Sequence record: NC_135728.1
DNA from: a phage
Direction: 5' to 3' (one strand)
Length of the DNA: 64,000 nucleotides
Shown: in pieces, positions 9,453 to 37,306 of the stretch
Layout: the number at the start of each line of letters is the position of its first letter
Numbering within the stretch: position 1 is the stretch's first letter
Translations under genes and position numbers: made by a program
The notes under the pieces: generated by a model
Database searches by the model: none
What the model was told of the DNA's origin: nothing
Seen by the model: only the letters and a program-made list of their open reading frames with translations

Positions 9453-10584
9453 AGAATATCCACTTATTGAATCTGTAGATTGTCTTGCTGATCTTCTCGA
9501 ACCTGACGCTATAGTTTATTATGACTTCGACCAGGTTGCATATCAAGCTGCGGCAAGTTGTGAAAAAAGGACAATTGAGGTAACACACAAAGCCTCCGGA
9601 CGTAAGAAGATGTTTAAAACACGAACAGAGTTCTGGGGGCGGCAGAAAAACACCGTTGGTGGTTGGTTAAAAGCTGAGAATACCAACCGTGAAGCCGCAT
9701 GTAAAAAGGCTGGAAAGGAGTTTATTCCGTGGACACGCGAAGATTTCGATGTCTTGGATATCCAAACCCCTGATCCTGTAGAGAACTGCTTACACACAAT
9801 TAAGTGTAAAGCTAATGCAGTTCTTAACTATCTTGGTATTCCGGAAGAGCGATGTGTCGGGGTGTTGGGAGGCACAGGTAACTTCAGACTAGATCTTCCA
9901 ATGCCGGAAAGATACAAAGCCAACCGTAACAATACTCTTCGACCACTGCTGCTTGGAGATGCAAGACAGTATCTCCAAAAGCAGTATAATGCTCAAGTGA
10001 TCAACGGTATCGAGGCTGACGACTGGTTAGCTATCCAGCAATTTGAAGGTTGGAACCACTACCAAAAAACAGGTAAGTTCAACAAGTTTATTATCTCTAT
10101 TGATAAGGACCAAAGAACACTACCTGGACTTGTGTTCGATCCCATGCGAAACGATAAGGGAGATTTTGTAAGGGAAACCCCTATGCTGATCGATAACGGC
10201 ATGGGAAACATCTTCATGAAGCCTAATGGAGAGGTTGGTGGTTACGGAATGCTGTTCTTCGGATACCAAATGCTGTGTGGTGACTCTGCTGACAACATCA
10301 AGCCGTATCAAGGACTTATCGGTAAGGGTAAGTTCGGGGATGCCTCAGCATTCTACCTGCTGTCTCAGTGCAGCACTCCAAAGGAGATGTGGGTGGCTAT
10401 TATTGATCAGTACAAGAAGTGGTTCCCGAAAGGTGTTGTTAAGTATACTGACTTCAATGGCATTGATCGTAGAATTTCCGTAGGTCAATGGATGAGTATA
10501 ATTTTTGACTGTTTGTATATGAAGCGAACATTCAATGATCAAACAAAACTTGTTAACGTTCTTAGAAATGTTGGAGCAATTTGA
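9445..10584 (+). CDS. 5'-3' exonuclease / flap endonuclease (T5 D15-like)
   Basis: GIEADDWLAI (cf. D15 GVEADD), SIDKDQRTL, MLCGDSADNIKPYQGLIGKGKFGDA helix-3-turn-helix; TTG start after AGGAGGGG. Confidence 0.75.
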   Translation: MSREYPLIESVDCLADLLEPDAIVYYDFDQVAYQAAASCEKRTIEVTHKASGRKKMFKTRTEFWGRQKNTVGGWLKAENTNREAACKKAGKEFIPWTREDFDVLDIQTPDPVENCLHTIKCKANAVLNYLGIPEERCVGVLGGTGNFRLDLPMPERYKANRNNTLRPLLLGDARQYLQKQYNAQVINGIEADDWLAIQQFEGWNHYQKTGKFNKFIISIDKDQRTLPGLVFDPMRNDKGDFVRETPMLIDNGMGNIFMKPNGEVGGYGMLFFGYQMLCGDSADNIKPYQGLIGKGKFGDASAFYLLSQCSTPKEMWVAIIDQYKKWFPKGVVKYTDFNGIDRRISVGQWMSIIFDCLYMKRTFNDQTKLVNVLRNVGAI

Positions 10585-10916
10585 TGACTAAAAATGCTGT
10601 AGATAATGCAATTATGGAAGCTGTTTTTGAGGATGATCATACAACAGGGACACTTAAAACAAAAAACACATTTATTGTTGCCACAGGTATGTGGCGGTTG
10701 TACGAAGATGACACTATTGCATACATCTTGTATACTGATGATTACGCAGATGACCGTGTATGGTCTGCTGTTTTAAAAGAGGATTGTGAGCTGATTGAGG
10801 GCGAGCGGTTATGCATGTTCACCAGTGTGGAAACAGATGTTAAGCTTTGCTCTCTCGTCTTGTTCAAAGATAAGGCTTATGCTCCTGATGAAGGAGAGGA
10901 GGATGAGAGAGCATGA
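10584..10916 (+). CDS. hypothetical acidic protein
   Basis: Track ORF. Confidence 0.5.
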   Translation: MTKNAVDNAIMEAVFEDDHTTGTLKTKNTFIVATGMWRLYEDDTIAYILYTDDYADDRVWSAVLKEDCELIEGERLCMFTSVETDVKLCSLVLFKDKAYAPDEGEEDERA

Positions 10917-13300: not shown

Positions 13301-14119
13301 TTGAGCAAGAAAGAGTCCAACGACAAATATTACACAAACCCTGAGTATGCAGAATATCTTGTTGGTAAAGTAAAAGACAAGTATGGGAATTGTGCATACG
13401 TTGAGCCTTCTGCTGGAAGGGGTTCTTTTTCAAAACTATTTTCAAAGATACTGTCGTACGATCTAGTACCAGATCCTGAATTTGAAGGACCAACACAGTG
13501 CATTCAGGCAAACTTCTTGGAGGTGCATCCTAAGGCAGATGTCTTCATAGGTAACCCACCATTTGGCAAGAATTCATCTTTAGCTTGCAAATTCTTTAAC
13601 CATTGTGCATCATTGCTAGAGCTTGGCGGGGCTATAGCCTTCATCTTGCCACGGACATTTGAAAAAATATTTTTTGCAAACAAACTGGACATGTCTATGC
13701 ACCTTGTCTACAGCGAAAGGTGCCCTAAGAACTCGTTTTTACTTAATGGCAAACCTTACGACGTGCCATGTGTTTTCCAAATTTGGGAGAAAAAGGCGTG
13801 CAATAGGGATCCTGTAGAGATTGGAGAGAATAAGTTATTTTCTTTTAGCACTCCGGATGACTACGACTTCTGTGTAAGACGTGTTGGGTATAATGCTGGA
13901 AAAGTATTGGGGGATGATGACCCAAAATCTGAAGAATCGACATATTTCATAAAATCTTTAGTTGACGGTGTTGACAGAGTGTTTGCCGAATGCTATTCTT
14001 CTTTTCAAGAAGAAGCAGGTAAGACTGCTGGAATGAAGAGTATAGGCAAGAAAGAACTACAATACATTTTGGAGACCCGGTATGATCAAAAGCATAGACT
14101 TGACCAAAGAACTTACTGA
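13301..14119 (+). CDS. N6-adenine DNA methyltransferase
   Basis: Motif I-like EPSAGRGSF then motif IV IGNPPFGK; start uncertain (TTG at 13301 after GGAGG; track start lies inside the terminator hairpin). Confidence 0.7.
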   Translation: MSKKESNDKYYTNPEYAEYLVGKVKDKYGNCAYVEPSAGRGSFSKLFSKILSYDLVPDPEFEGPTQCIQANFLEVHPKADVFIGNPPFGKNSSLACKFFNHCASLLELGGAIAFILPRTFEKIFFANKLDMSMHLVYSERCPKNSFLLNGKPYDVPCVFQIWEKKACNRDPVEIGENKLFSFSTPDDYDFCVRRVGYNAGKVLGDDDPKSEESTYFIKSLVDGVDRVFAECYSSFQEEAGKTAGMKSIGKKELQYILETRYDQKHRLDQRTY

Positions 14120-14540
14120 TGCAAAAGCTTTTGGTGAGACAGCGGTACAAAGAGGCCAGGCGATGGGACTGGCACTACCTTTCGTCTTAAAAGAGCACTT
14201 TACAGATTTTCAACTTATCAAAGGTGATAAGGGAATGCTTATCCTGGAGCATAAGTTGAGTAAGAAACGCTACAAAGTTGTTTTTAATTCTAAAGCCCCA
14301 ACAAAACTTGGATTCAGAACTTACAATCTCAACCCATCCTATACTAAGGGTGTTGGAAGGGTAGAACAACAGCATTTCAGTGCTAGAGCTTCTTTAGCCC
14401 CTTTGATGCTAAATTTCTCAGGAGTGGCTTTAGGATACCTTGATAAGAAAAGAGTTCTTCATGTCCGTTTCACAGACTTTGTAACGCTTTTAGCTAACAA
14501 CGAAGTTGATGAAAAGGGACGTGTAAAAACAAACTTCTAA
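14082..14540 (+). CDS. hypothetical protein
   Basis: Track ORF, GGAGAC RBS. Confidence 0.5.
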   Translation: MIKSIDLTKELTDAKAFGETAVQRGQAMGLALPFVLKEHFTDFQLIKGDKGMLILEHKLSKKRYKVVFNSKAPTKLGFRTYNLNPSYTKGVGRVEQQHFSARASLAPLMLNFSGVALGYLDKKRVLHVRFTDFVTLLANNEVDEKGRVKTNF

Positions 14541-14555
14541 TAACGCATAGTATGA

Positions 14556-14759
14556 TTGGAGACCGCAATGACACTAAAGTTAACAATTCCAGACAGCTTT
14601 TCAGAAAACTTTATCCCAGAAATGATGGGTAAGATGCGATCATTGCTTGATCAGATTGAGGAAGCTGTTTGGGAAGACGATGCTGTAGTGGCTAACGAGC
14701 TAGTAGATAAGTGTAAAAGTATTATTGATGCAGTTGAAGAATACTACGGAGGTTTTTGA
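14556..14759 (+). CDS. hypothetical acidic protein
   Basis: Track ORF, GGAGA RBS. Confidence 0.5.
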   Translation: METAMTLKLTIPDSFSENFIPEMMGKMRSLLDQIEEAVWEDDAVVANELVDKCKSIIDAVEEYYGGF

Positions 14760-29263: not shown

Positions 29264-29497
29264 ATGAAAGTTAAATTTCTTACAGATTTAGGGTACCCTT
29301 CCTTGGTTGACTGTGTTGGTAAAATTGTGGAAGCAAAACGGCTATCTGCAAACGAGAATGTTGTCATGGTTAAGGGAAAAGATTTATTAGCTGCAGGTGC
29401 AGAGTCTGGCAGGGTCTCTCCTGACTATACGTATTACCTGTCTTTAAGTAATCTACCAGAACGAGGCGGCAAAGGCCTTGAAGTTGTGGAGGAGTGA
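29264..29497 (+). CDS. small acidic protein, paralog family A
   Basis: MKVKFL... start, acidic VVEE C-terminus; GTAGGAGG RBS. Confidence 0.5.
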   Translation: MKVKFLTDLGYPSLVDCVGKIVEAKRLSANENVVMVKGKDLLAAGAESGRVSPDYTYYLSLSNLPERGGKGLEVVEE

Positions 29498-29502
29498 CAG
29501 GT

Positions 29503-30027
29503 ATGCTTCTGATTAACTGGGAAGACCTCTATGGGGACAAAGACCCTGTTGCGTTTGTTGATCGTAGATGGAGATATACTGAAGAACAACTGGCTGCAAA
29601 AAATTTAACTGCAAAACGCAGAAAGATCATCCAGTGCAAGTATAAATACGCACAGTTTGCTGCAAAAGTGTCTCCCCAAATCGAGAGCTTTGTGCTTAAA
29701 TTGTATGACGAGTACCTCAAATTCAAACTGGATTTTGTACAGGTATACCGTGCACAGATACGCCCAGATACCAGCATTTGTAGATGGAAGGTTGTTTGTG
29801 ACGGTAAAGATTTGCCACTCAGCTTGACAATTGAGCAGCGTTGGGGGTATCATGAGTGCGGTCTGTATGAGACTTGGGATGTCATTGTAGATCCTGCTAA
29901 GTACCTGAACACAGAGGAGCTGGAATATATCAATAAGGTTATTCTCGATATGTTTTTCAGATACACCTGTGAAAACTCTGAGAAAGAACGGGATAATTTT
30001 CTTGACACCATCAGCAACCATCTGTAG
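29503..30027 (+). CDS. hypothetical protein
   Basis: ATG after GGAG (track start is GTG at 29494). Confidence 0.5.
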   Translation: MLLINWEDLYGDKDPVAFVDRRWRYTEEQLAAKNLTAKRRKIIQCKYKYAQFAAKVSPQIESFVLKLYDEYLKFKLDFVQVYRAQIRPDTSICRWKVVCDGKDLPLSLTIEQRWGYHECGLYETWDVIVDPAKYLNTEELEYINKVILDMFFRYTCENSEKERDNFLDTISNHL

Positions 30028-32639: not shown

Positions 32640-32921
32640 ATGAAAAAGATTAACAGTGGTGAAGTTGAGTTTAAACTTGTCGGGAAAGGCACTTACTGGG
32701 AAGTTCGTCAAAAGGTATATTTGTTCGGTCTTATTCCCTATTGGTCTAAATTCTACTGGGGAGCTAACGAGTTGGGAAGATACGCCACCAAATCAATGGC
32801 ACTTATTGGTATAGCAGAGTACATTGCAGCCAGAGATAGGGTTGGAGACACTTATTACTATACTGCGGACGATATTCGTAACAGTGTTTACGTCCCACAA
32901 CCACCTGATGGGGACCGTTGA
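32640..32921 (+). CDS. hypothetical protein
   Basis: ATG after GGAGGGAG. Confidence 0.5.
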   Translation: MKKINSGEVEFKLVGKGTYWEVRQKVYLFGLIPYWSKFYWGANELGRYATKSMALIGIAEYIAARDRVGDTYYYTADDIRNSVYVPQPPDGDR

Positions 32922-33145
32922 TGAAAGTTAAAGTTTTAGATTCAAGCTTCTATATTGGTCAGGAGCCTTTAGTAGGGAAAGTGTTTACTGCTGTCCCTAA
33001 CGAAGATTATCCTGACCTTTTAAAAATAAAAGGTGCAGATCTTATTGCCGCTGGTGCATCTCAGGACTGCTTTGACAGTCAGTGGACCTACAACTTTGCC
33101 CTAGGTGAGGATGTAGAGGTAGTGGAGGACGATCATGAAGGTTAA
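32921..33145 (+). CDS. small acidic protein, paralog family A (cassette 1)
   Basis: MKVKVLDSSFYIGQ...LIAAGA...VEVVED. Confidence 0.55.
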   Translation: MKVKVLDSSFYIGQEPLVGKVFTAVPNEDYPDLLKIKGADLIAAGASQDCFDSQWTYNFALGEDVEVVEDDHEG

Positions 33146-33389
33146 AATTCTTGATTCTAACGTCTACTTGGGACAATCCTTCCTGAAGGGAAAGGTCGTT
33201 CCTGCGGTATACTTTGAAGGGTTGCCGTGGGATGATCCTGTGCGGCAACATCACAGTTATGTAGGCCACAACGTGGTGTTTATCTTGGGATCAGACCTGA
33301 TCACCGCTGGTGCACCTGAATATTATTTCGGGGAAGAGTCCTATTATGCCTTTGGGGTAGGGTCAGATGCGGATATTGTAGAGCTGTGA
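33135..33389 (+). CDS. small acidic protein, paralog family A (cassette 1)
   Basis: MKVKILDSNVYLGQ...LITAGA... Confidence 0.55.
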   Translation: MKVKILDSNVYLGQSFLKGKVVPAVYFEGLPWDDPVRQHHSYVGHNVVFILGSDLITAGAPEYYFGEESYYAFGVGSDADIVEL

Positions 33390-33401
33390 TGGGTAACCGT
33401 T

Positions 33402-33800
33402 GTGAAAAATAAACTGTTTAAAGTTACAATGAAAATTCGCGGAGCTTGGAGCGTAAAGCAAGGGCGTATTCCGGAATTTGAGAAAGACTTCTACGTAGTC
33501 TCCACCTCGGAGGAGGCTGCATGCTGGCAGGCTGGCTATGCCTATGCAAGAACCTGGTACGAAGGATACCAGACCGGGGGATATGACGGAGAAATTATCA
33601 GCAGAGGTGTGGAAGAAATTAATGTGTTGACAAGTGAAAAAGTTTTTGTTATAGTGCATCCAGATTCCAGAGTGAAGCATTACTGGAACGCCAGAACAAA
33701 AACTTGGACACCGTTTGCAGATTCTGCTACGCCACTTTTAAACCAGAAAGCTCTTGACTCTGCCCCAAGTTATGGGATTGTTGAAGAAAAGCTAAACTGA
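33402..33800 (+). CDS. hypothetical protein, paralog family B (cassette 1)
   Basis: Shares LFKV..., HPDS..YW..TWTP.. with 35607-36002; GTG start. Confidence 0.55.
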   Translation: MKNKLFKVTMKIRGAWSVKQGRIPEFEKDFYVVSTSEEAACWQAGYAYARTWYEGYQTGGYDGEIISRGVEEINVLTSEKVFVIVHPDSRVKHYWNARTKTWTPFADSATPLLNQKALDSAPSYGIVEEKLN

Positions 33801-33817
33801 AACAGTGAGGTACTAAC

Positions 33818-34108
33818 ATGATGGATTTAGTTCTGGACACGGATAACACCGGAGAGTTTAAAAAGGATGGTGTAACAAGCGTTGACCAATCCTTCCCTGC
33901 CAAGATTGACTCAAAATGGACCTACAAGTTCGATGGAGAGATCTTCGCAAATGATGAGAAGGTTGTAGATGCTGCAGCCATTTTGAACGCTCTAGGGTAC
34001 GACCCTGTGAATTCTTTGATCAAGGATCCTGTTGAGTTTGCAGAGTATGTTCGAAAAATGGCAGATCTTGCTGTGGATATTTTAAAAACTATCGACGACA
34101 AGCTGTAA
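33818..34108 (+). CDS. hypothetical protein
   Basis: GTGAGGT RBS. Confidence 0.5.
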   Translation: MMDLVLDTDNTGEFKKDGVTSVDQSFPAKIDSKWTYKFDGEIFANDEKVVDAAAILNALGYDPVNSLIKDPVEFAEYVRKMADLAVDILKTIDDKL

Positions 34109-34114
34109 AAACTG

Positions 34115-34143
34115 TTGACACAACGCTTCAGATTTAGTATCAT
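34115..34143 (+). promoter_or_regulatory. sigma70-like promoter TTGACA-17-TATCAT
   Basis: Directly upstream of the HPF homolog. Confidence 0.5.
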
Positions 34144-34190
34144 TGTTTTCAAAGAGGGTTTGGTTCCCTCTTCTTTAAAAGGAACACGTT

Positions 34191-34508
34191 ATGCAAATTG
34201 AAATCACTGGCAACGTAGAAATCACTGAAGGTATGGTGTCTTTCATTTCCCACAAAATGTCTAAGCTGGAGCGTTTGCACCCATCTGCCAACTATGCACG
34301 TGTGAGTGTAAAAGTTGAAAATGATCACCAGGAAGTTATGGCGTTCATTTTTGACAATTCTGGAAAAGAAGTTATTGCCAAGGCTAAAGGCAGTGATGCT
34401 TACGAGGCAACTGACCGTATGGTAGATGTTGCAGCACGTCAGCTGGCTAAATGCGGTGGAAAGAAAGGTAAGGGGAAAGGCAAAGTAAAGATTGACTTTG
34501 GAGAATGA
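34191..34508 (+). CDS. hpf: ribosome hibernation promoting factor / RaiA-family homolog
   Basis: Colinear with E. coli HPF: MQIEITGNVEITEGM...KLE...VKVE...GSDAYEATD...ARQLAK, plus a basic KGKGKGK tail. Confidence 0.85.
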   Translation: MQIEITGNVEITEGMVSFISHKMSKLERLHPSANYARVSVKVENDHQEVMAFIFDNSGKEVIAKAKGSDAYEATDRMVDVAARQLAKCGGKKGKGKGKVKIDFGE

Positions 34509-34517
34509 GGTGCTACA

Positions 34518-34619
34518 ATGGGTGTGATTAAGAAATTAGTCCCAAATGTAGAGATTGCATGCTTTGAAATTATGTTTGCAATCGCAGTTGTAGTTAATGT
34601 GTTAGGTTACGGCTATTAA
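34518..34619 (+). CDS. hydrophobic micro-protein, 33 aa
   Basis: GAGGTG RBS; MGVIKKLVPNVEIACFEIMFAIAVVVNVLGYGY. Confidence 0.35.
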   Translation: MGVIKKLVPNVEIACFEIMFAIAVVVNVLGYGY

Positions 34620-34645
34620 TATCAAATAATTGAGGAGACCTCTAA

Positions 34646-34915
34646 ATGAAAATTAAATTATTCAAAACCGAGCTGGCAGACAAAAACTGTGGACTGGTTG
34701 AAGGCATGATTGTCGAAGCACAACCAGTTGACTATATGAAGGTGGTTCGTGATGCCCTGGGTGAAGGTTTTGATCTGATGGAGCCAGCTCTGCGAGAAGA
34801 TGTTATCGAGATGGCTAAAAAGCACACACCTGAAGGCATGGTGGTGTTTGTTGCACCGGGTAACGGAGAAGAGTTGATTGTAACTCCTGATGTGTATGAG
34901 ATTGTAGAGGAATAA
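34646..34915 (+). CDS. small acidic protein, paralog family A
   Basis: MKIKLFK... start, EIVEE end; GAGGAGA RBS. Confidence 0.5.
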   Translation: MKIKLFKTELADKNCGLVEGMIVEAQPVDYMKVVRDALGEGFDLMEPALREDVIEMAKKHTPEGMVVFVAPGNGEELIVTPDVYEIVEE

Positions 34916-35006
34916 TCCTGCTTGGATTAGCAGGCTTCCTCGATAAGGAAGGTTTGTAATTATTTGTGGGAAAGGAATCCCAATCTCTTACCAGAGGTGA
35001 TACTAT

Positions 35007-35270
35007 ATGATTGTTTATTTTAAAACTTCAGGTGGATACCCTGATTCTCAAAGCTTGATCGGAAAAACGTGCACAGCATACTCACCTCTTGATGAGGAGG
35101 TAGGCGATATTCTACGAAATATGTATCGGATTGATCCTCAAGAAGCTTTTGATCAAAATCTTGTATTTGTCAAGGGCTCAGACATGAAGTCTTTGGGAGC
35201 ATTCCCTGAAGCAGATGATGATGCCGTTTATTCGTTCATGACTCCTTTTGAAGCTATGGTTATTGGGTGA
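35007..35270 (+). CDS. small acidic protein, paralog family A (cassette 2)
   Basis: GAGGTGA RBS. Confidence 0.5.
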   Translation: MIVYFKTSGGYPDSQSLIGKTCTAYSPLDEEVGDILRNMYRIDPQEAFDQNLVFVKGSDMKSLGAFPEADDDAVYSFMTPFEAMVIG

Positions 35271-35275
35271 TAATA

Positions 35276-35607
35276 TGAAAGTACGCTTTATTGGTGAAAC
35301 AATTCCTGTGCATCTCCGGTCGCCTGAGGATTCTGCAGATCTTGCATCTCAAAAGGCGAGAGGCTATGATAAGAAAGTAATCTCAACCGATGTAGTGCTT
35401 GAGGCTACTAGTCTACCTGACCCCGCTGCATTCTTTAATCATTATGGATACTATTTCAGCAATCTGATGAATATCGGTGAGCTTGTGTTTATTAGTGGTG
35501 GAGAAATTGTTAGCAAGCTTGGCGGCGATCCGGATGTCTTTCATGAAACCTGTCCTTTTGCATTTGTGGTGGGTTCAGATGTGGAAGTTATTGAGGAGGT
35601 GCGGTAA
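35276..35607 (+). CDS. small acidic protein, paralog family A (cassette 2)
   Basis: MKVRFIG... start, VEVIEE end. Confidence 0.5.
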
Positions 35608-36002
35608 TGGTAAGCCTATACCGTGTTGAGTATAGCTCAGATACTGTATACAACGTAAGAAGCAAAGATCGCAGCGACAGAGTGCAAGAAATGTATGTTC
35701 TTGCCGACAGTCCGTTATCTGCAGCGTTCAAGGCAGGGGCTCTTGCATCTCGTTGGAAATTTGAAGGCGGATCTTTCTATGAAGAAACCCTTGAAGATTC
35801 TGTTGTTATTTCTTCTGTAGAGGTTTCAGATGACTACGAAGGGAAAAAGTTCGTAATGCGGCACCCACACAGTAACATTGCGTACTACTGGGATGTTCTG
35901 AACAACGAGTGGACCCCAGATCTTCAGAAGGCTACTGTGCTAACACCGTTTTTGGCAGATAAGTTCCCACCAGAAGGTAATTTATCCGCACTGTTTCAGT
36001 AA
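35607..36002 (+). CDS. hypothetical protein, paralog family B (cassette 2)
   Basis: LYRV..., HPHS..YW..EWTP.. shared with 33402-33800. Confidence 0.55.
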   Translation: MVSLYRVEYSSDTVYNVRSKDRSDRVQEMYVLADSPLSAAFKAGALASRWKFEGGSFYEETLEDSVVISSVEVSDDYEGKKFVMRHPHSNIAYYWDVLNNEWTPDLQKATVLTPFLADKFPPEGNLSALFQ

Positions 36003-36020: not shown

Positions 36021-36050
36021 TTGACAACACCAACCCTGTGTGAAATAATA
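36021..36050 (+). promoter_or_regulatory. sigma70-like promoter TTGACA-17-AATAAT
   Basis: Consensus -35, moderate -10. Confidence 0.35.
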
Positions 36051-36081: not shown

Positions 36082-36339
36082 ATGAAGATTAAATTGAAAA
36101 ACCTTGAAACGGCAGAGATTCAGGACGGTGTAGATTTCCGTTCTAAAGATGGTGACATCTTAGAGGTAAATCTTCCAACCTACGAGCTGATTAAAGGTTT
36201 TGGCAACGTTCAGGAAGAGGATATTCCAGAAATTCTTATGATGTTGATTCTTGACGGAACTGTGTTTGTAGGTGAAGGTGAGAACGCTATTGCAATCCCA
36301 GGCCATTTTTATGAAGTAGTTGACGAAGAGGTGCTGTAA
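36082..36339 (+). CDS. small acidic protein, paralog family A
   Basis: MKIKLKN... start, VVDEEVL end. Confidence 0.5.
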   Translation: MKIKLKNLETAEIQDGVDFRSKDGDILEVNLPTYELIKGFGNVQEEDIPEILMMLILDGTVFVGEGENAIAIPGHFYEVVDEEVL

Positions 36340-36690
36340 ATGAAAGTAGAAATTACTGGTTTTGATGTTAGTGTGGTTCCGGAAGATATTTTAGCTAACT
36401 TACCGGAAGGTTTTGGTAACGGTGTTGTGGTGGATGCTGTTCCTCCTACCAAAGACATTCTGCTGCAGTATGGTGTAGCAGAGGAAGATGTCGATAAAGT
36501 TCTTACAATGATGGCAATCGATCGTGTTGTCGTTGTTAAAGGTCTCGATAATTTTGAGAGTGATCCTCTGATTATTCGCGGAGATGACTACAAAATCATC
36601 GATAATGAAGGCCAAGAGTTCTATGAGCCTTGTGCAGAAGATATTCTTAACTTATTACTGGAAGCAGGCACCGAAGAGGAGGACGAATAA
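36340..36690 (+). CDS. small acidic protein
   Basis: MKVEITG... start, EEEDE end. Confidence 0.5.
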   Translation: MKVEITGFDVSVVPEDILANLPEGFGNGVVVDAVPPTKDILLQYGVAEEDVDKVLTMMAIDRVVVVKGLDNFESDPLIIRGDDYKIIDNEGQEFYEPCAEDILNLLLEAGTEEEDE

Positions 36691-37019
36691 TGAAGATTGA
36701 CCCGTTACTGAAGGCTCGTGCAGAAAAAGCGTACACCATTAAGTTGACCAACTTGGTTCCTACTTGTCATCCGGATGTAGGTTGGCCAGAAGGTTTGGTG
36801 GAGGGAACTGTAACAGCTGCATACCTTCCTAACATCAAATACCTCATGGAAATCTTGGAGCTGGATGAGGAAACGGCAGAAGAGTTCCAGTTGGACATGA
36901 AACAAAGTGGGACTCTGGTTATTCACGGGTGGTACAATACTAAAGATGCAGAAGATCCTCTGGTAACTTCTAATCTGGCATATGAAATCTTAGGACCTTT
37001 GAACCTGGAGGAAGACTAA
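36690..37019 (+). CDS. small acidic protein
   Basis: TAATG overlap with the upstream gene. Confidence 0.5.
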   Translation: MKIDPLLKARAEKAYTIKLTNLVPTCHPDVGWPEGLVEGTVTAAYLPNIKYLMEILELDEETAEEFQLDMKQSGTLVIHGWYNTKDAEDPLVTSNLAYEILGPLNLEED

Positions 37020-37306
37020 TGAAAGATCTGGTTAAGATTAAGATTAAAGATACCAATGGAGAACTCAGCCATTTTGGAATTAATGATGGTGACGAGCTGA
37101 TCGCACACCTGCCTACCAAGGAGGTTGTAAGCAAAGCAGTTGCCGGAGAAGAAGCTGCAATGCAGGCTGCAGGTGTGGATGAAAACTATGTAGCTATGTG
37201 CATGTGCCGAGATCAGGTTGTTCTGTATAAAGCGTATCGACCAAACGGAGCCACGGAGTGGCTTGTATTCCGACCCGAAGGATATGAAATCTTAGAGGCA
37301 CTGTGA
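37019..37306 (+). CDS. small acidic protein
   Basis: TAATG overlap; MKDLVKIKIKD... Confidence 0.5.
   Translation: MKDLVKIKIKDTNGELSHFGINDGDELIAHLPTKEVVSKAVAGEEAAMQAAGVDENYVAMCMCRDQVVLYKAYRPNGATEWLVFRPEGYEILEAL

Follow-up and report, generated by a model that had tools for sequence, protein, structure and literature searches.

The phage DNA of record NC_135728.1, analyzed here over 64,000 nucleotides (nt; this whole stretch is the window), carries on its plus strand two short runs of small genes in which two genes of one protein family (A) precede a gene of a second family (B). In the names used for phage rV5, the first run (A1, A2, B1) corresponds to gp135, gp136, and gp137 and the second (A4, A5, B2) to gp142, gp143, and gp144, all of which are annotated as hypothetical proteins. 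By sequence comparison, the source phage is rV5-like and belongs to the genus Vequintavirus, with Escherichia phage nimi being 98.5% identical over the 5 kb around the two cassettes and about 100 other rV5-like phages 97-98% identical. Such phages are among the most frequently isolated phages of Escherichia coli and are applied in biocontrol, and a role is still to be assigned for most small genes of the block concerned, the plus-strand genes forming a single long block from about 2 kb to 39 kb (guanine-cytosine skew of the window). A preliminary description, made from the DNA letters, had read the two runs as a tandem segmental duplication of a three-gene cassette. Our analysis sorted eleven small genes into two families (A with five genes, B with two) and four singletons, and it points to old duplications, followed by purifying selection, as the probable source of the repeated order. 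The genes of the two families are as follows, with lengths in amino acids (aa) and acidity as isoelectric point (pI).

29264-29497, plus strand: A0 (rV5 gp122), 77 aa, pI about 4; phrog_5009 match at E 1e-35; fifth member of family A, outside both cassettes
32921-33145, plus strand: A1 (rV5 gp135), 74 aa, acidic; phrog_5009 match at E 2e-38
33135-33389, plus strand: A2 (rV5 gp136), 84 aa, with a loop insertion; phrog_5009 match at E 3e-32; 11-nt overlap with A1
33402-33800, plus strand: B1 (rV5 gp137), 132 aa, GTG start; phrog_7379 match at E 3e-73
35007-35270, plus strand: A4 (rV5 gp142), 87 aa; most divergent member of family A; phrog_5009 match at E 1.2e-4 only
35275-35607, plus strand: A5 (rV5 gp143), 110 aa, with N-terminal and loop insertions; no phrog_5009 match
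35607-36002, plus strand: B2 (rV5 gp144), 131 aa, acidic; phrog_7379 match at E 2e-66; start overlapping the stop of A5 (ATGA)

The pairwise signal within family A was uneven. Smith-Waterman scores, expressed as z values against 1000 shuffles, were highest for A1 and A2 (z 23; 40% identity, E 1e-14) and for A0 and A1 (z 15.2), intermediate for A2 and A5 (z 9.0, E 2e-4), A1 and A5 (z 8.4, E 3e-5), A0 and A4 (z 6.2), and A2 and A4 (z 5.4), and lowest for A1 and A4 (z 4.0, a score reached by 5 of the 1000 shuffles) and A4 and A5 (z 2.6). Because the membership of a gene cannot be tested with a profile built in part from that gene, hidden Markov models (HMMs) were built with whole groups left out. 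A model of the A0, A1, and A2 groups only, searched against the 483 open reading frames (ORFs) of the window, recovered A5 at E 4.6e-6 and A4 at E 3.3e-5, with the next ORF at 0.38, and the reverse model of A4 and A5 recovered A2, A0, and A1 at E 3e-6 to 1e-5. These searches showed that A0, A1, A2, A4, and A5 form one family, and that all four A genes named in the preliminary description are homologous, as it had supposed. The signature of the family (74-110 aa; pI 4.0-4.7) is internal, consisting of G-x-D-L-x-A-A-G-A followed by an aromatic strand. The hallmark originally proposed, an MK start together with an acidic VEE-like tail, held only in part, as A4 runs from MIVYF... to ...MVIG and a separate family, described below, has both traits. 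The gene coordinates first given were accurate for five of the six genes; for A5, the frame from 35276 gives stops, and the ATG of MKVRF... lies at 35275.

The relationship between the two B genes was more direct: B1 and B2 share 27.7% identity over 119 aa (BLASTP E 1e-8; z 16.8, with none of the 1000 shuffles reaching the score), and each covers the 131-position phrog_7379 profile end to end. On this evidence B1 and B2 are paralogs. The alignment bore out the motifs quoted for them earlier (LFKV/LYRV, HP[DH]S, YW[ND], and [TE]WTP), and similarity between the proposed copies was significant in both families. The start of B1 is placed at GTG 33402 in the rV5 record and at ATG 33429 in records of the BASEL collection; the former is favored because B2 and a distant relative, P0047, have N-termini that can be aligned with the stretch upstream of the ATG. 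B1 is near neutral in charge and B2 is acidic, with a pI of 4.7. In PHROGs, A0, A1, and A2 fall into phrog_5009 and B1 and B2 into phrog_7379, both of unknown function, and A4 (phrog_13920) and A5 (phrog_13661) stand apart. Since phrog_5009 and phrog_7379 match these proteins end to end, the paralogy of B1 with B2 and of A0, A1, and A2 is implicit in the public clustering; new to this analysis are the membership of A4 and A5 in family A, the recurrence of the gene order with its relative age, the deletions and hybrids seen in nature, and the fold predictions. In the rV5 genome paper (PMC3606486), a text search found nothing on paralogy, duplication, gene families, gp137, or gp144, and a text search by rV5 locus tags found no paper naming these genes in the library covered.

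The start and tail traits recur in a look-alike family, C, whose members lie between and downstream of the cassettes.

34646-34915, plus strand: family C member (rV5 gp141), MKIKL...EIVEE, A-like in appearance; between the cassettes
36082-36339, 36340-36690, 36690-37019, and 37019-37306, plus strand: four further family C paralogs in a row (rV5 gp145-149), pairwise z 4.5-7.4
29480-29503, 33120-33135, 35585-35607, 36320-36340, 36670-36690, and 37000-37019: sites at which tail codons double as a Shine-Dalgarno sequence

Family C comprises five acidic paralogs of 85-116 aa that begin with MKIKL..., carry (E/D)G.I..A..PT and a helical middle, and end in ...YEIVEE, with orthologs in both sister lineages. 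The member at 34646-34915 scored only z 0.3-1.3 against A0 and A1. A superfamily of A and C was considered and rejected, as hhalign aligned just the first 29 columns with a probability of 2% and pairwise z values did not exceed 1.5. In six gene pairs, the codons of the Glu-rich tail (GAGGAG/GGAGGA) also form the Shine-Dalgarno sequence of the abutting next gene, A1 and A2 being one of these pairs, with GAGGAC in the tail of A1; the recurrent VEE tails thus partly reflect a translation-signal constraint and are not evidence of homology. These observations are the best that can be said for a compositional resemblance among unrelated small acidic ORFs with MK.K starts and Glu-rich ends: the shared traits are unspecific and common to family C, the Glu-Glu tails encode GGAGG sites in six pairs, and the pairs A4-A5 and A1-A4 are weak. 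Such an explanation is nevertheless hardly credible in view of full-length alignments with conserved internal motifs, shuffle z values of up to 23, independent PHROG models, and a leave-group-out search in which the next-best ORF was weaker by four orders of magnitude, by which family membership is settled.

The order in which the genes of the two families stand is also unlikely to be accidental. When five A and two B genes were placed at random among 25-45 genes, two A genes preceded each of the B genes in only 3e-5 to 4e-4 of the orders, which argues against coincidence. The term tandem, by contrast, does not apply, as the two copies are 1.2 kb apart and are separated by X, the HPF gene, a 33-codon ORF, and the family C gene. 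The presence of an HPF homolog between the cassettes was noted correctly in the preliminary description. The neighboring features are the following.

33818-34108, plus strand: X (rV5 ORF143), 96 aa, acidic; phrog_12029; in neither family A nor family B; between the cassettes
34115-34143, plus strand: sigma-70-type promoter-like site upstream of HPF, agreeing with the consensus at 11 of 12 positions; annotated for rV5 as promoter P144
34191-34508, plus strand: HPF/RaiA homolog (ribosome hibernation factor); Pfam PF02482 (Ribosomal_S30AE), E 1.8e-12, above the curated cut-off; between the cassettes
36021-36049, plus strand: sigma-70-type promoter-like site downstream of the second cassette, agreeing with the consensus at 11 of 12 positions and having an extended -10 TG; annotated for rV5 as promoter P150

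At the DNA level, no nucleotide repeat was found between the cassettes, the sole patch (26 nt, 81% identity) lying inside the first one between A1 and A2, and the duplication event is thus old. In the tree of family A, the partner of A1 is A2 (67% bootstrap) and not A4, and similarity is lowest between A4 and A5; the fifth member, A0, is found 3.4 kb upstream of the cassettes, beside an unrelated gene. The pairing of A1 with A2 would fit the duplication of an A-B pair followed by separate duplications of A, and it would also fit the copying of a whole block followed by exchange between A1 and A2. Gene order in relatives did not preserve the cassette as a unit. A 124-kb contig in an E. coli assembly (L005), with orthologs 30-64% identical to those of the window, has the order A1-A2-(an unrelated 96-aa gene)-X-HPF-C-A4-A5-B2 and no B1. 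A Vequintavirinae-like metagenome contig of 139 kb (L004) has A0 as its sole family A gene, a single B1-type gene after two unrelated genes, and no HPF. The parts of the cassette are therefore separable, and together with the tree this uncoupling makes a one-step duplication of three genes only one of the possible histories. The segmental duplication originally claimed is thus upheld as far as gene homology and an order and strand beyond chance are concerned, and fails in positional orthology and nucleotide similarity.

A third cassette, in which A0 would be followed by a B-like gene, was also considered. The gene directly following A0 is gp123 of rV5 (29494/29503-30027, 174-177 aa; "putative glycosidase" in BASEL), and the idea rested on its in-frame fusion to the tail of B1 in a natural deletion described below, with TW..D.A common to both at the junction. 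It was rejected, since Smith-Waterman z values were -0.8 and -0.2 and hhalign probabilities, with family alignments on both sides, were 0.1% and 0.3%.

The duplications are older than the lineages in which they are seen. Each A paralog paired with its own ortholog in L005 at 98-100% bootstrap, and in the tree of family B, B1 and P0047 (87% bootstrap) split from B2, P0048, and P0057; all duplications thus predate the separation of these lineages. Comparison with phage MaxTheCat (97% identical DNA) gave ratios of nonsynonymous to synonymous substitution rates (dN/dS) of 0.08-0.15 for A1, A2, B1, A4, and A5 and of 0 for B2, which had no nonsynonymous change, all from this single pair of genomes, in which 2-14 codons per gene had changed; values for the neighboring genes were similar. 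Estimates of dN/dS between paralogs or against L005 were discarded as uninformative, as dS was saturated (>1.4 or undefined). Across the genus, identity in B2 did not fall below 95% in any of the 118 Vequintavirus records or below 97.7% in the 60 that were listed, and the listed copies of B1 were 94.7-99.2% identical. Present selection on the cassette genes is purifying and not diversifying, contrary to what had been suggested from the divergence of the copies; their low identity is due to age and not to ongoing diversification.

These data bear on the possibility that an A-A-B block was copied as a unit and then diverged fast under diversifying selection, its products being host-takeover or anti-defence factors. 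In its favor are the recurrence of one gene order built from identical families (chance probability about 1e-4), the tight packing with its A1/A2 and A5/B2 overlaps, and the loop insertion shared by the second-position genes A2 and A5, and natural recombination between A1 and A2 means that later homogenisation could mask the original pairing. However, A1 pairs with A2 and not with A4, a split already present in L005; the insertion is found in A4 too; other genes separate the two copies; A pairs without B, and B without A, occur in relatives; and a dN/dS of about 0.1 with very high conservation throughout the genus is hard to reconcile with diversifying selection. We regard this as a possible but doubtful history.

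The cassette genes are real and conserved, and natural variants showed them to be non-essential on laboratory hosts. Phage EduardKellenberger of the BASEL collection (MZ501061.1; L003 2716-3183) has lost about 3.7 kb and with it about a dozen genes, among them A1, A2, and the greater part of B1, whose final 23 codons now continue the reading frame of gp123. The joint lies in an imperfect common stretch of about 15 nt (TTG[TC]AGAT[CT]CTGCTA); because the similarity between gp123 and B is null and the TW is not conserved among gp123 orthologs, the deletion was joined at microhomology. B1 is absent in 3 of the 118 genus records. In two rV5-like contigs from separate samples (L010 3001-3213 and L011 3001-3213), a single 70-aa hybrid replaces A1 and A2, with B1 next to it, and combines the N-terminus of A1 with the C-terminus of A2, joined at DLIAAGA, the site of the 26-nt patch between the two genes. 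The hybrid is the product of unequal crossing-over between the tandem paralogs. Two further joined products, each seen in a single contig, were a B1-X fusion-like protein (P0004) and a chimera of prophage-type and A1-type sequence (P0019), both of which could be assembly artefacts. Short motifs common to paralogs act as live recombination points by which the region is reshaped.

Mosaic features were also seen in A1 and X. By hand count on the alignment, the first 32 residues of A1 are about 56% identical to A2 and about 31% to A0, and its C-terminal half is about 50% identical to gp40 of phage mEp021 and about 39% to A2; the boundary lies at GADLIAAGA, the motif at which P0019 is joined. X and A1 have a patch of 25 nt and 9 aa in common (DSKWTYKF in X, DSQWTYNF in A1 at 33072-33096), and X resembles the C-terminus of gp123 weakly (z 4.7; 1 of 1000 shuffles). 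The X patches and P0004 hint at further mosaic exchange in the block.

In the collections searched, both families appear restricted to these phages and a few close relatives, with family A occurring in addition in mEp021-like prophages. The search for family A gave 42 clusters among 5.8 billion, all from rV5-like phages or from temperate phages and E. coli prophages of the mEp021 type. For family B, an exhaustive profile search of 1.84 billion representatives and a second profile search returned only B1, B2, three diverged full-length relatives, and fragments; over all searches, the full-length relatives of B numbered about 6. Six long repetitive proteins (P0050-P0055) also matched the B profile, with E values of 5e-6 to 5e-4 when 4-8 stretches were summed; P0050 and P0051, the two of the six that were read, are internally repetitive, and the matches were discounted as products of repeats. 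The mEp021 protein gp40 (L002 4001-4228) is a homolog of A0 over its full length (41% identity, E 6e-16) and has the GADLIAAGA motif. Unlike the A genes of the window, this gene has no second copy in its temperate phage; it belongs to a group of small genes separating the late regulator Q from the holin/lysis genes, and it has no B neighbor. Since gp40 homologs are found in mEp021-like temperate phages and many E. coli prophages, family A passes between virulent and temperate phages. A text search of PMC11893012 found no mention of mEp021 gp39, gp40, or gp41.

Structure prediction placed the two families in different fold classes. The AlphaFold model of A0 (predicted local distance difference test [pLDDT], 95) is a compact SH3-like beta-barrel. 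The G-x-D-L-x-A-A-G-A signature would be a conserved turn of this barrel, whose loops vary in length; A2, A4, and A5 have a variable loop inserted at a common site. The predicted A0 barrel superposes on those of SH3, KOW, and PhnA C-terminal domains over 46-53 residues at 2.0-2.8 Å. The model of B1, of medium confidence and built on five sequences only (pLDDT, 79; predicted template modeling [TM] score, 0.75), is a two-layer alpha/beta structure with a beta-sheet on one long helix, and its C-terminal hairpin region carries the conserved HP.S...YW...W. A fold search of BFVD returned the query's own family and one weak match, a 185-aa protein of phage 4MG (E 0.017; TM score, 0.55); phage 4MG was not detected in a tblastn search with gp123.

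An HPF homolog lies between the cassettes, the B model recalls ribosomal protein eL20/LX, and a ribosomal role was weighed in two forms. In the first, A and B would be one machine, a complex of two barrels and an alpha/beta subunit acting on the ribosome with HPF, in which B mimics or replaces a ribosomal-protein-like element. This is very improbable, as L004 has a B gene without HPF or an adjacent A gene and L005 has HPF and A1-A2 without B1. B2 is moreover acidic, unlike RNA-binding ribosomal proteins; B has no sequence relationship to eL20/LX or PurS and differs from them by its extra C-terminal beta-hairpin region; and no sequence match was found between family B and ribosomal protein families. 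PurS and T7 Gp2 also match the model, and the fold of B is therefore a common small alpha/beta sandwich. In the second form, the three-subunit A-A-B modules and HPF would reprogram or protect host ribosomes, with B as an eL20-fold adaptor, the barrels as regulators, and different modules serving different ribosome states or hosts; we consider this very improbable.

Anti-restriction DNA mimics of the Ocr and ArdA type have an elongated helical fold and a DNA-like pattern of surface charge; family A is acidic but predicted to be a compact beta-barrel. Vequintavirinae were found to be exceptionally susceptible to restriction-modification systems in the BASEL study (PMC8594841), which argues weakly against an Ocr-like role for these acidic proteins. 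None of ten proteins matched a PADLOC model at E <=0.01. A text search of a phage accessory-gene screen found neither rV5 nor Vequintavirinae, and in the CRISPRi-ART paper the tests on the rV5-like phage EdH4 were limited to its capsid and rII genes.

On balance, we favor an account in which old local duplications took place in a block of small genes, flanked by sigma-70-type promoters and read by host RNA polymerase, and left conserved but dispensable genes whose products would serve as early protein-binding modulators. The A-A-B order would have come to be present twice either through one three-gene event or, about equally likely, through duplication of an A-B pair followed by separate duplications of A. 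All copies were present before the lineages split and have been held under purifying selection since then, with recombination at short common motifs continuing. The A and B proteins may act early in infection as small modulators that bind host or competitor proteins; their acidity, predicted folds, position, and tight gene packing suggest both the early expression and the protein-binding role. The paralogs may have diverged toward different partners without forming an obligate A-B complex, as suggested by the depth of their divergence despite constraint, by losses in relatives that were independent of one another, and by the variable barrel loop of A2, A4, and A5.

Several points weigh against this account. 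Sequence searches of Pfam, NCBIfam, PADLOC, and PDB with both families gave no match and no characterised homolog, and the model of B was built on the five sequences mentioned above. The timing of expression is taken from promoter-like sites and the rV5 annotation. The dN/dS estimates would miss site-specific or episodic positive selection. The tree of family A is weakly resolved at the node joining A1 and A2, which leaves the order of events uncertain, as does the insertion site common to A2, A4, and A5 and lacking in A1.

The phenomenon is familiar in kind, being an old gene duplication in a phage accessory region, real but ordinary. Large lytic phages of the T4, T5, and SPO1 types have paralogous families of small genes in their early or accessory regions. 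The runs described here resemble theirs in having short, packed genes that are read from host-type promoters, can be lost under laboratory conditions, differ between relatives, and have multiplied by duplication within the locality. They differ from phage small-gene families in general in that A and B occur in a very narrow group of E. coli phages, with no target or phenotype assigned. The predicted folds, the natural knockouts (EduardKellenberger and the phages with an A1/A2 fusion), and the variants of the sister lineages provide a shortlist for functional tests.

Some minor observations concern the surrounding genes and the database records. A scan of the window for transfer RNA genes found none. 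The gp123 gene had no Pfam match, and the grounds for its "glycosidase" label in BASEL were not apparent. Within the genus its variability greatly exceeds that of its neighbors: amino acid identity is about 92% in most records but falls to 73% in Alma and to 50% in FV3, against about 96% for the adjacent A0. In the relatives, L005 has an additional 98-aa gene (10467-10763; Pfam PF27050, Phage_P22_Y8K6) between B2 and the first family C gene, a place taken in the window by just 80 nt of spacer that contain a promoter-like site, and L004 has a TnpB-type gene (13532-14644; Pfam OrfB_IS605 and Cas12f1-like_TNB) within the small-gene block. Eighteen GenBank records (MG0656xx) named "Campylobacter phage", with Campylobacter jejuni as the stated host, match this E. 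coli rV5-like sequence, the five that were tabulated being about 98% identical to that of the window; they are probably mislabelled or contaminant genomes.

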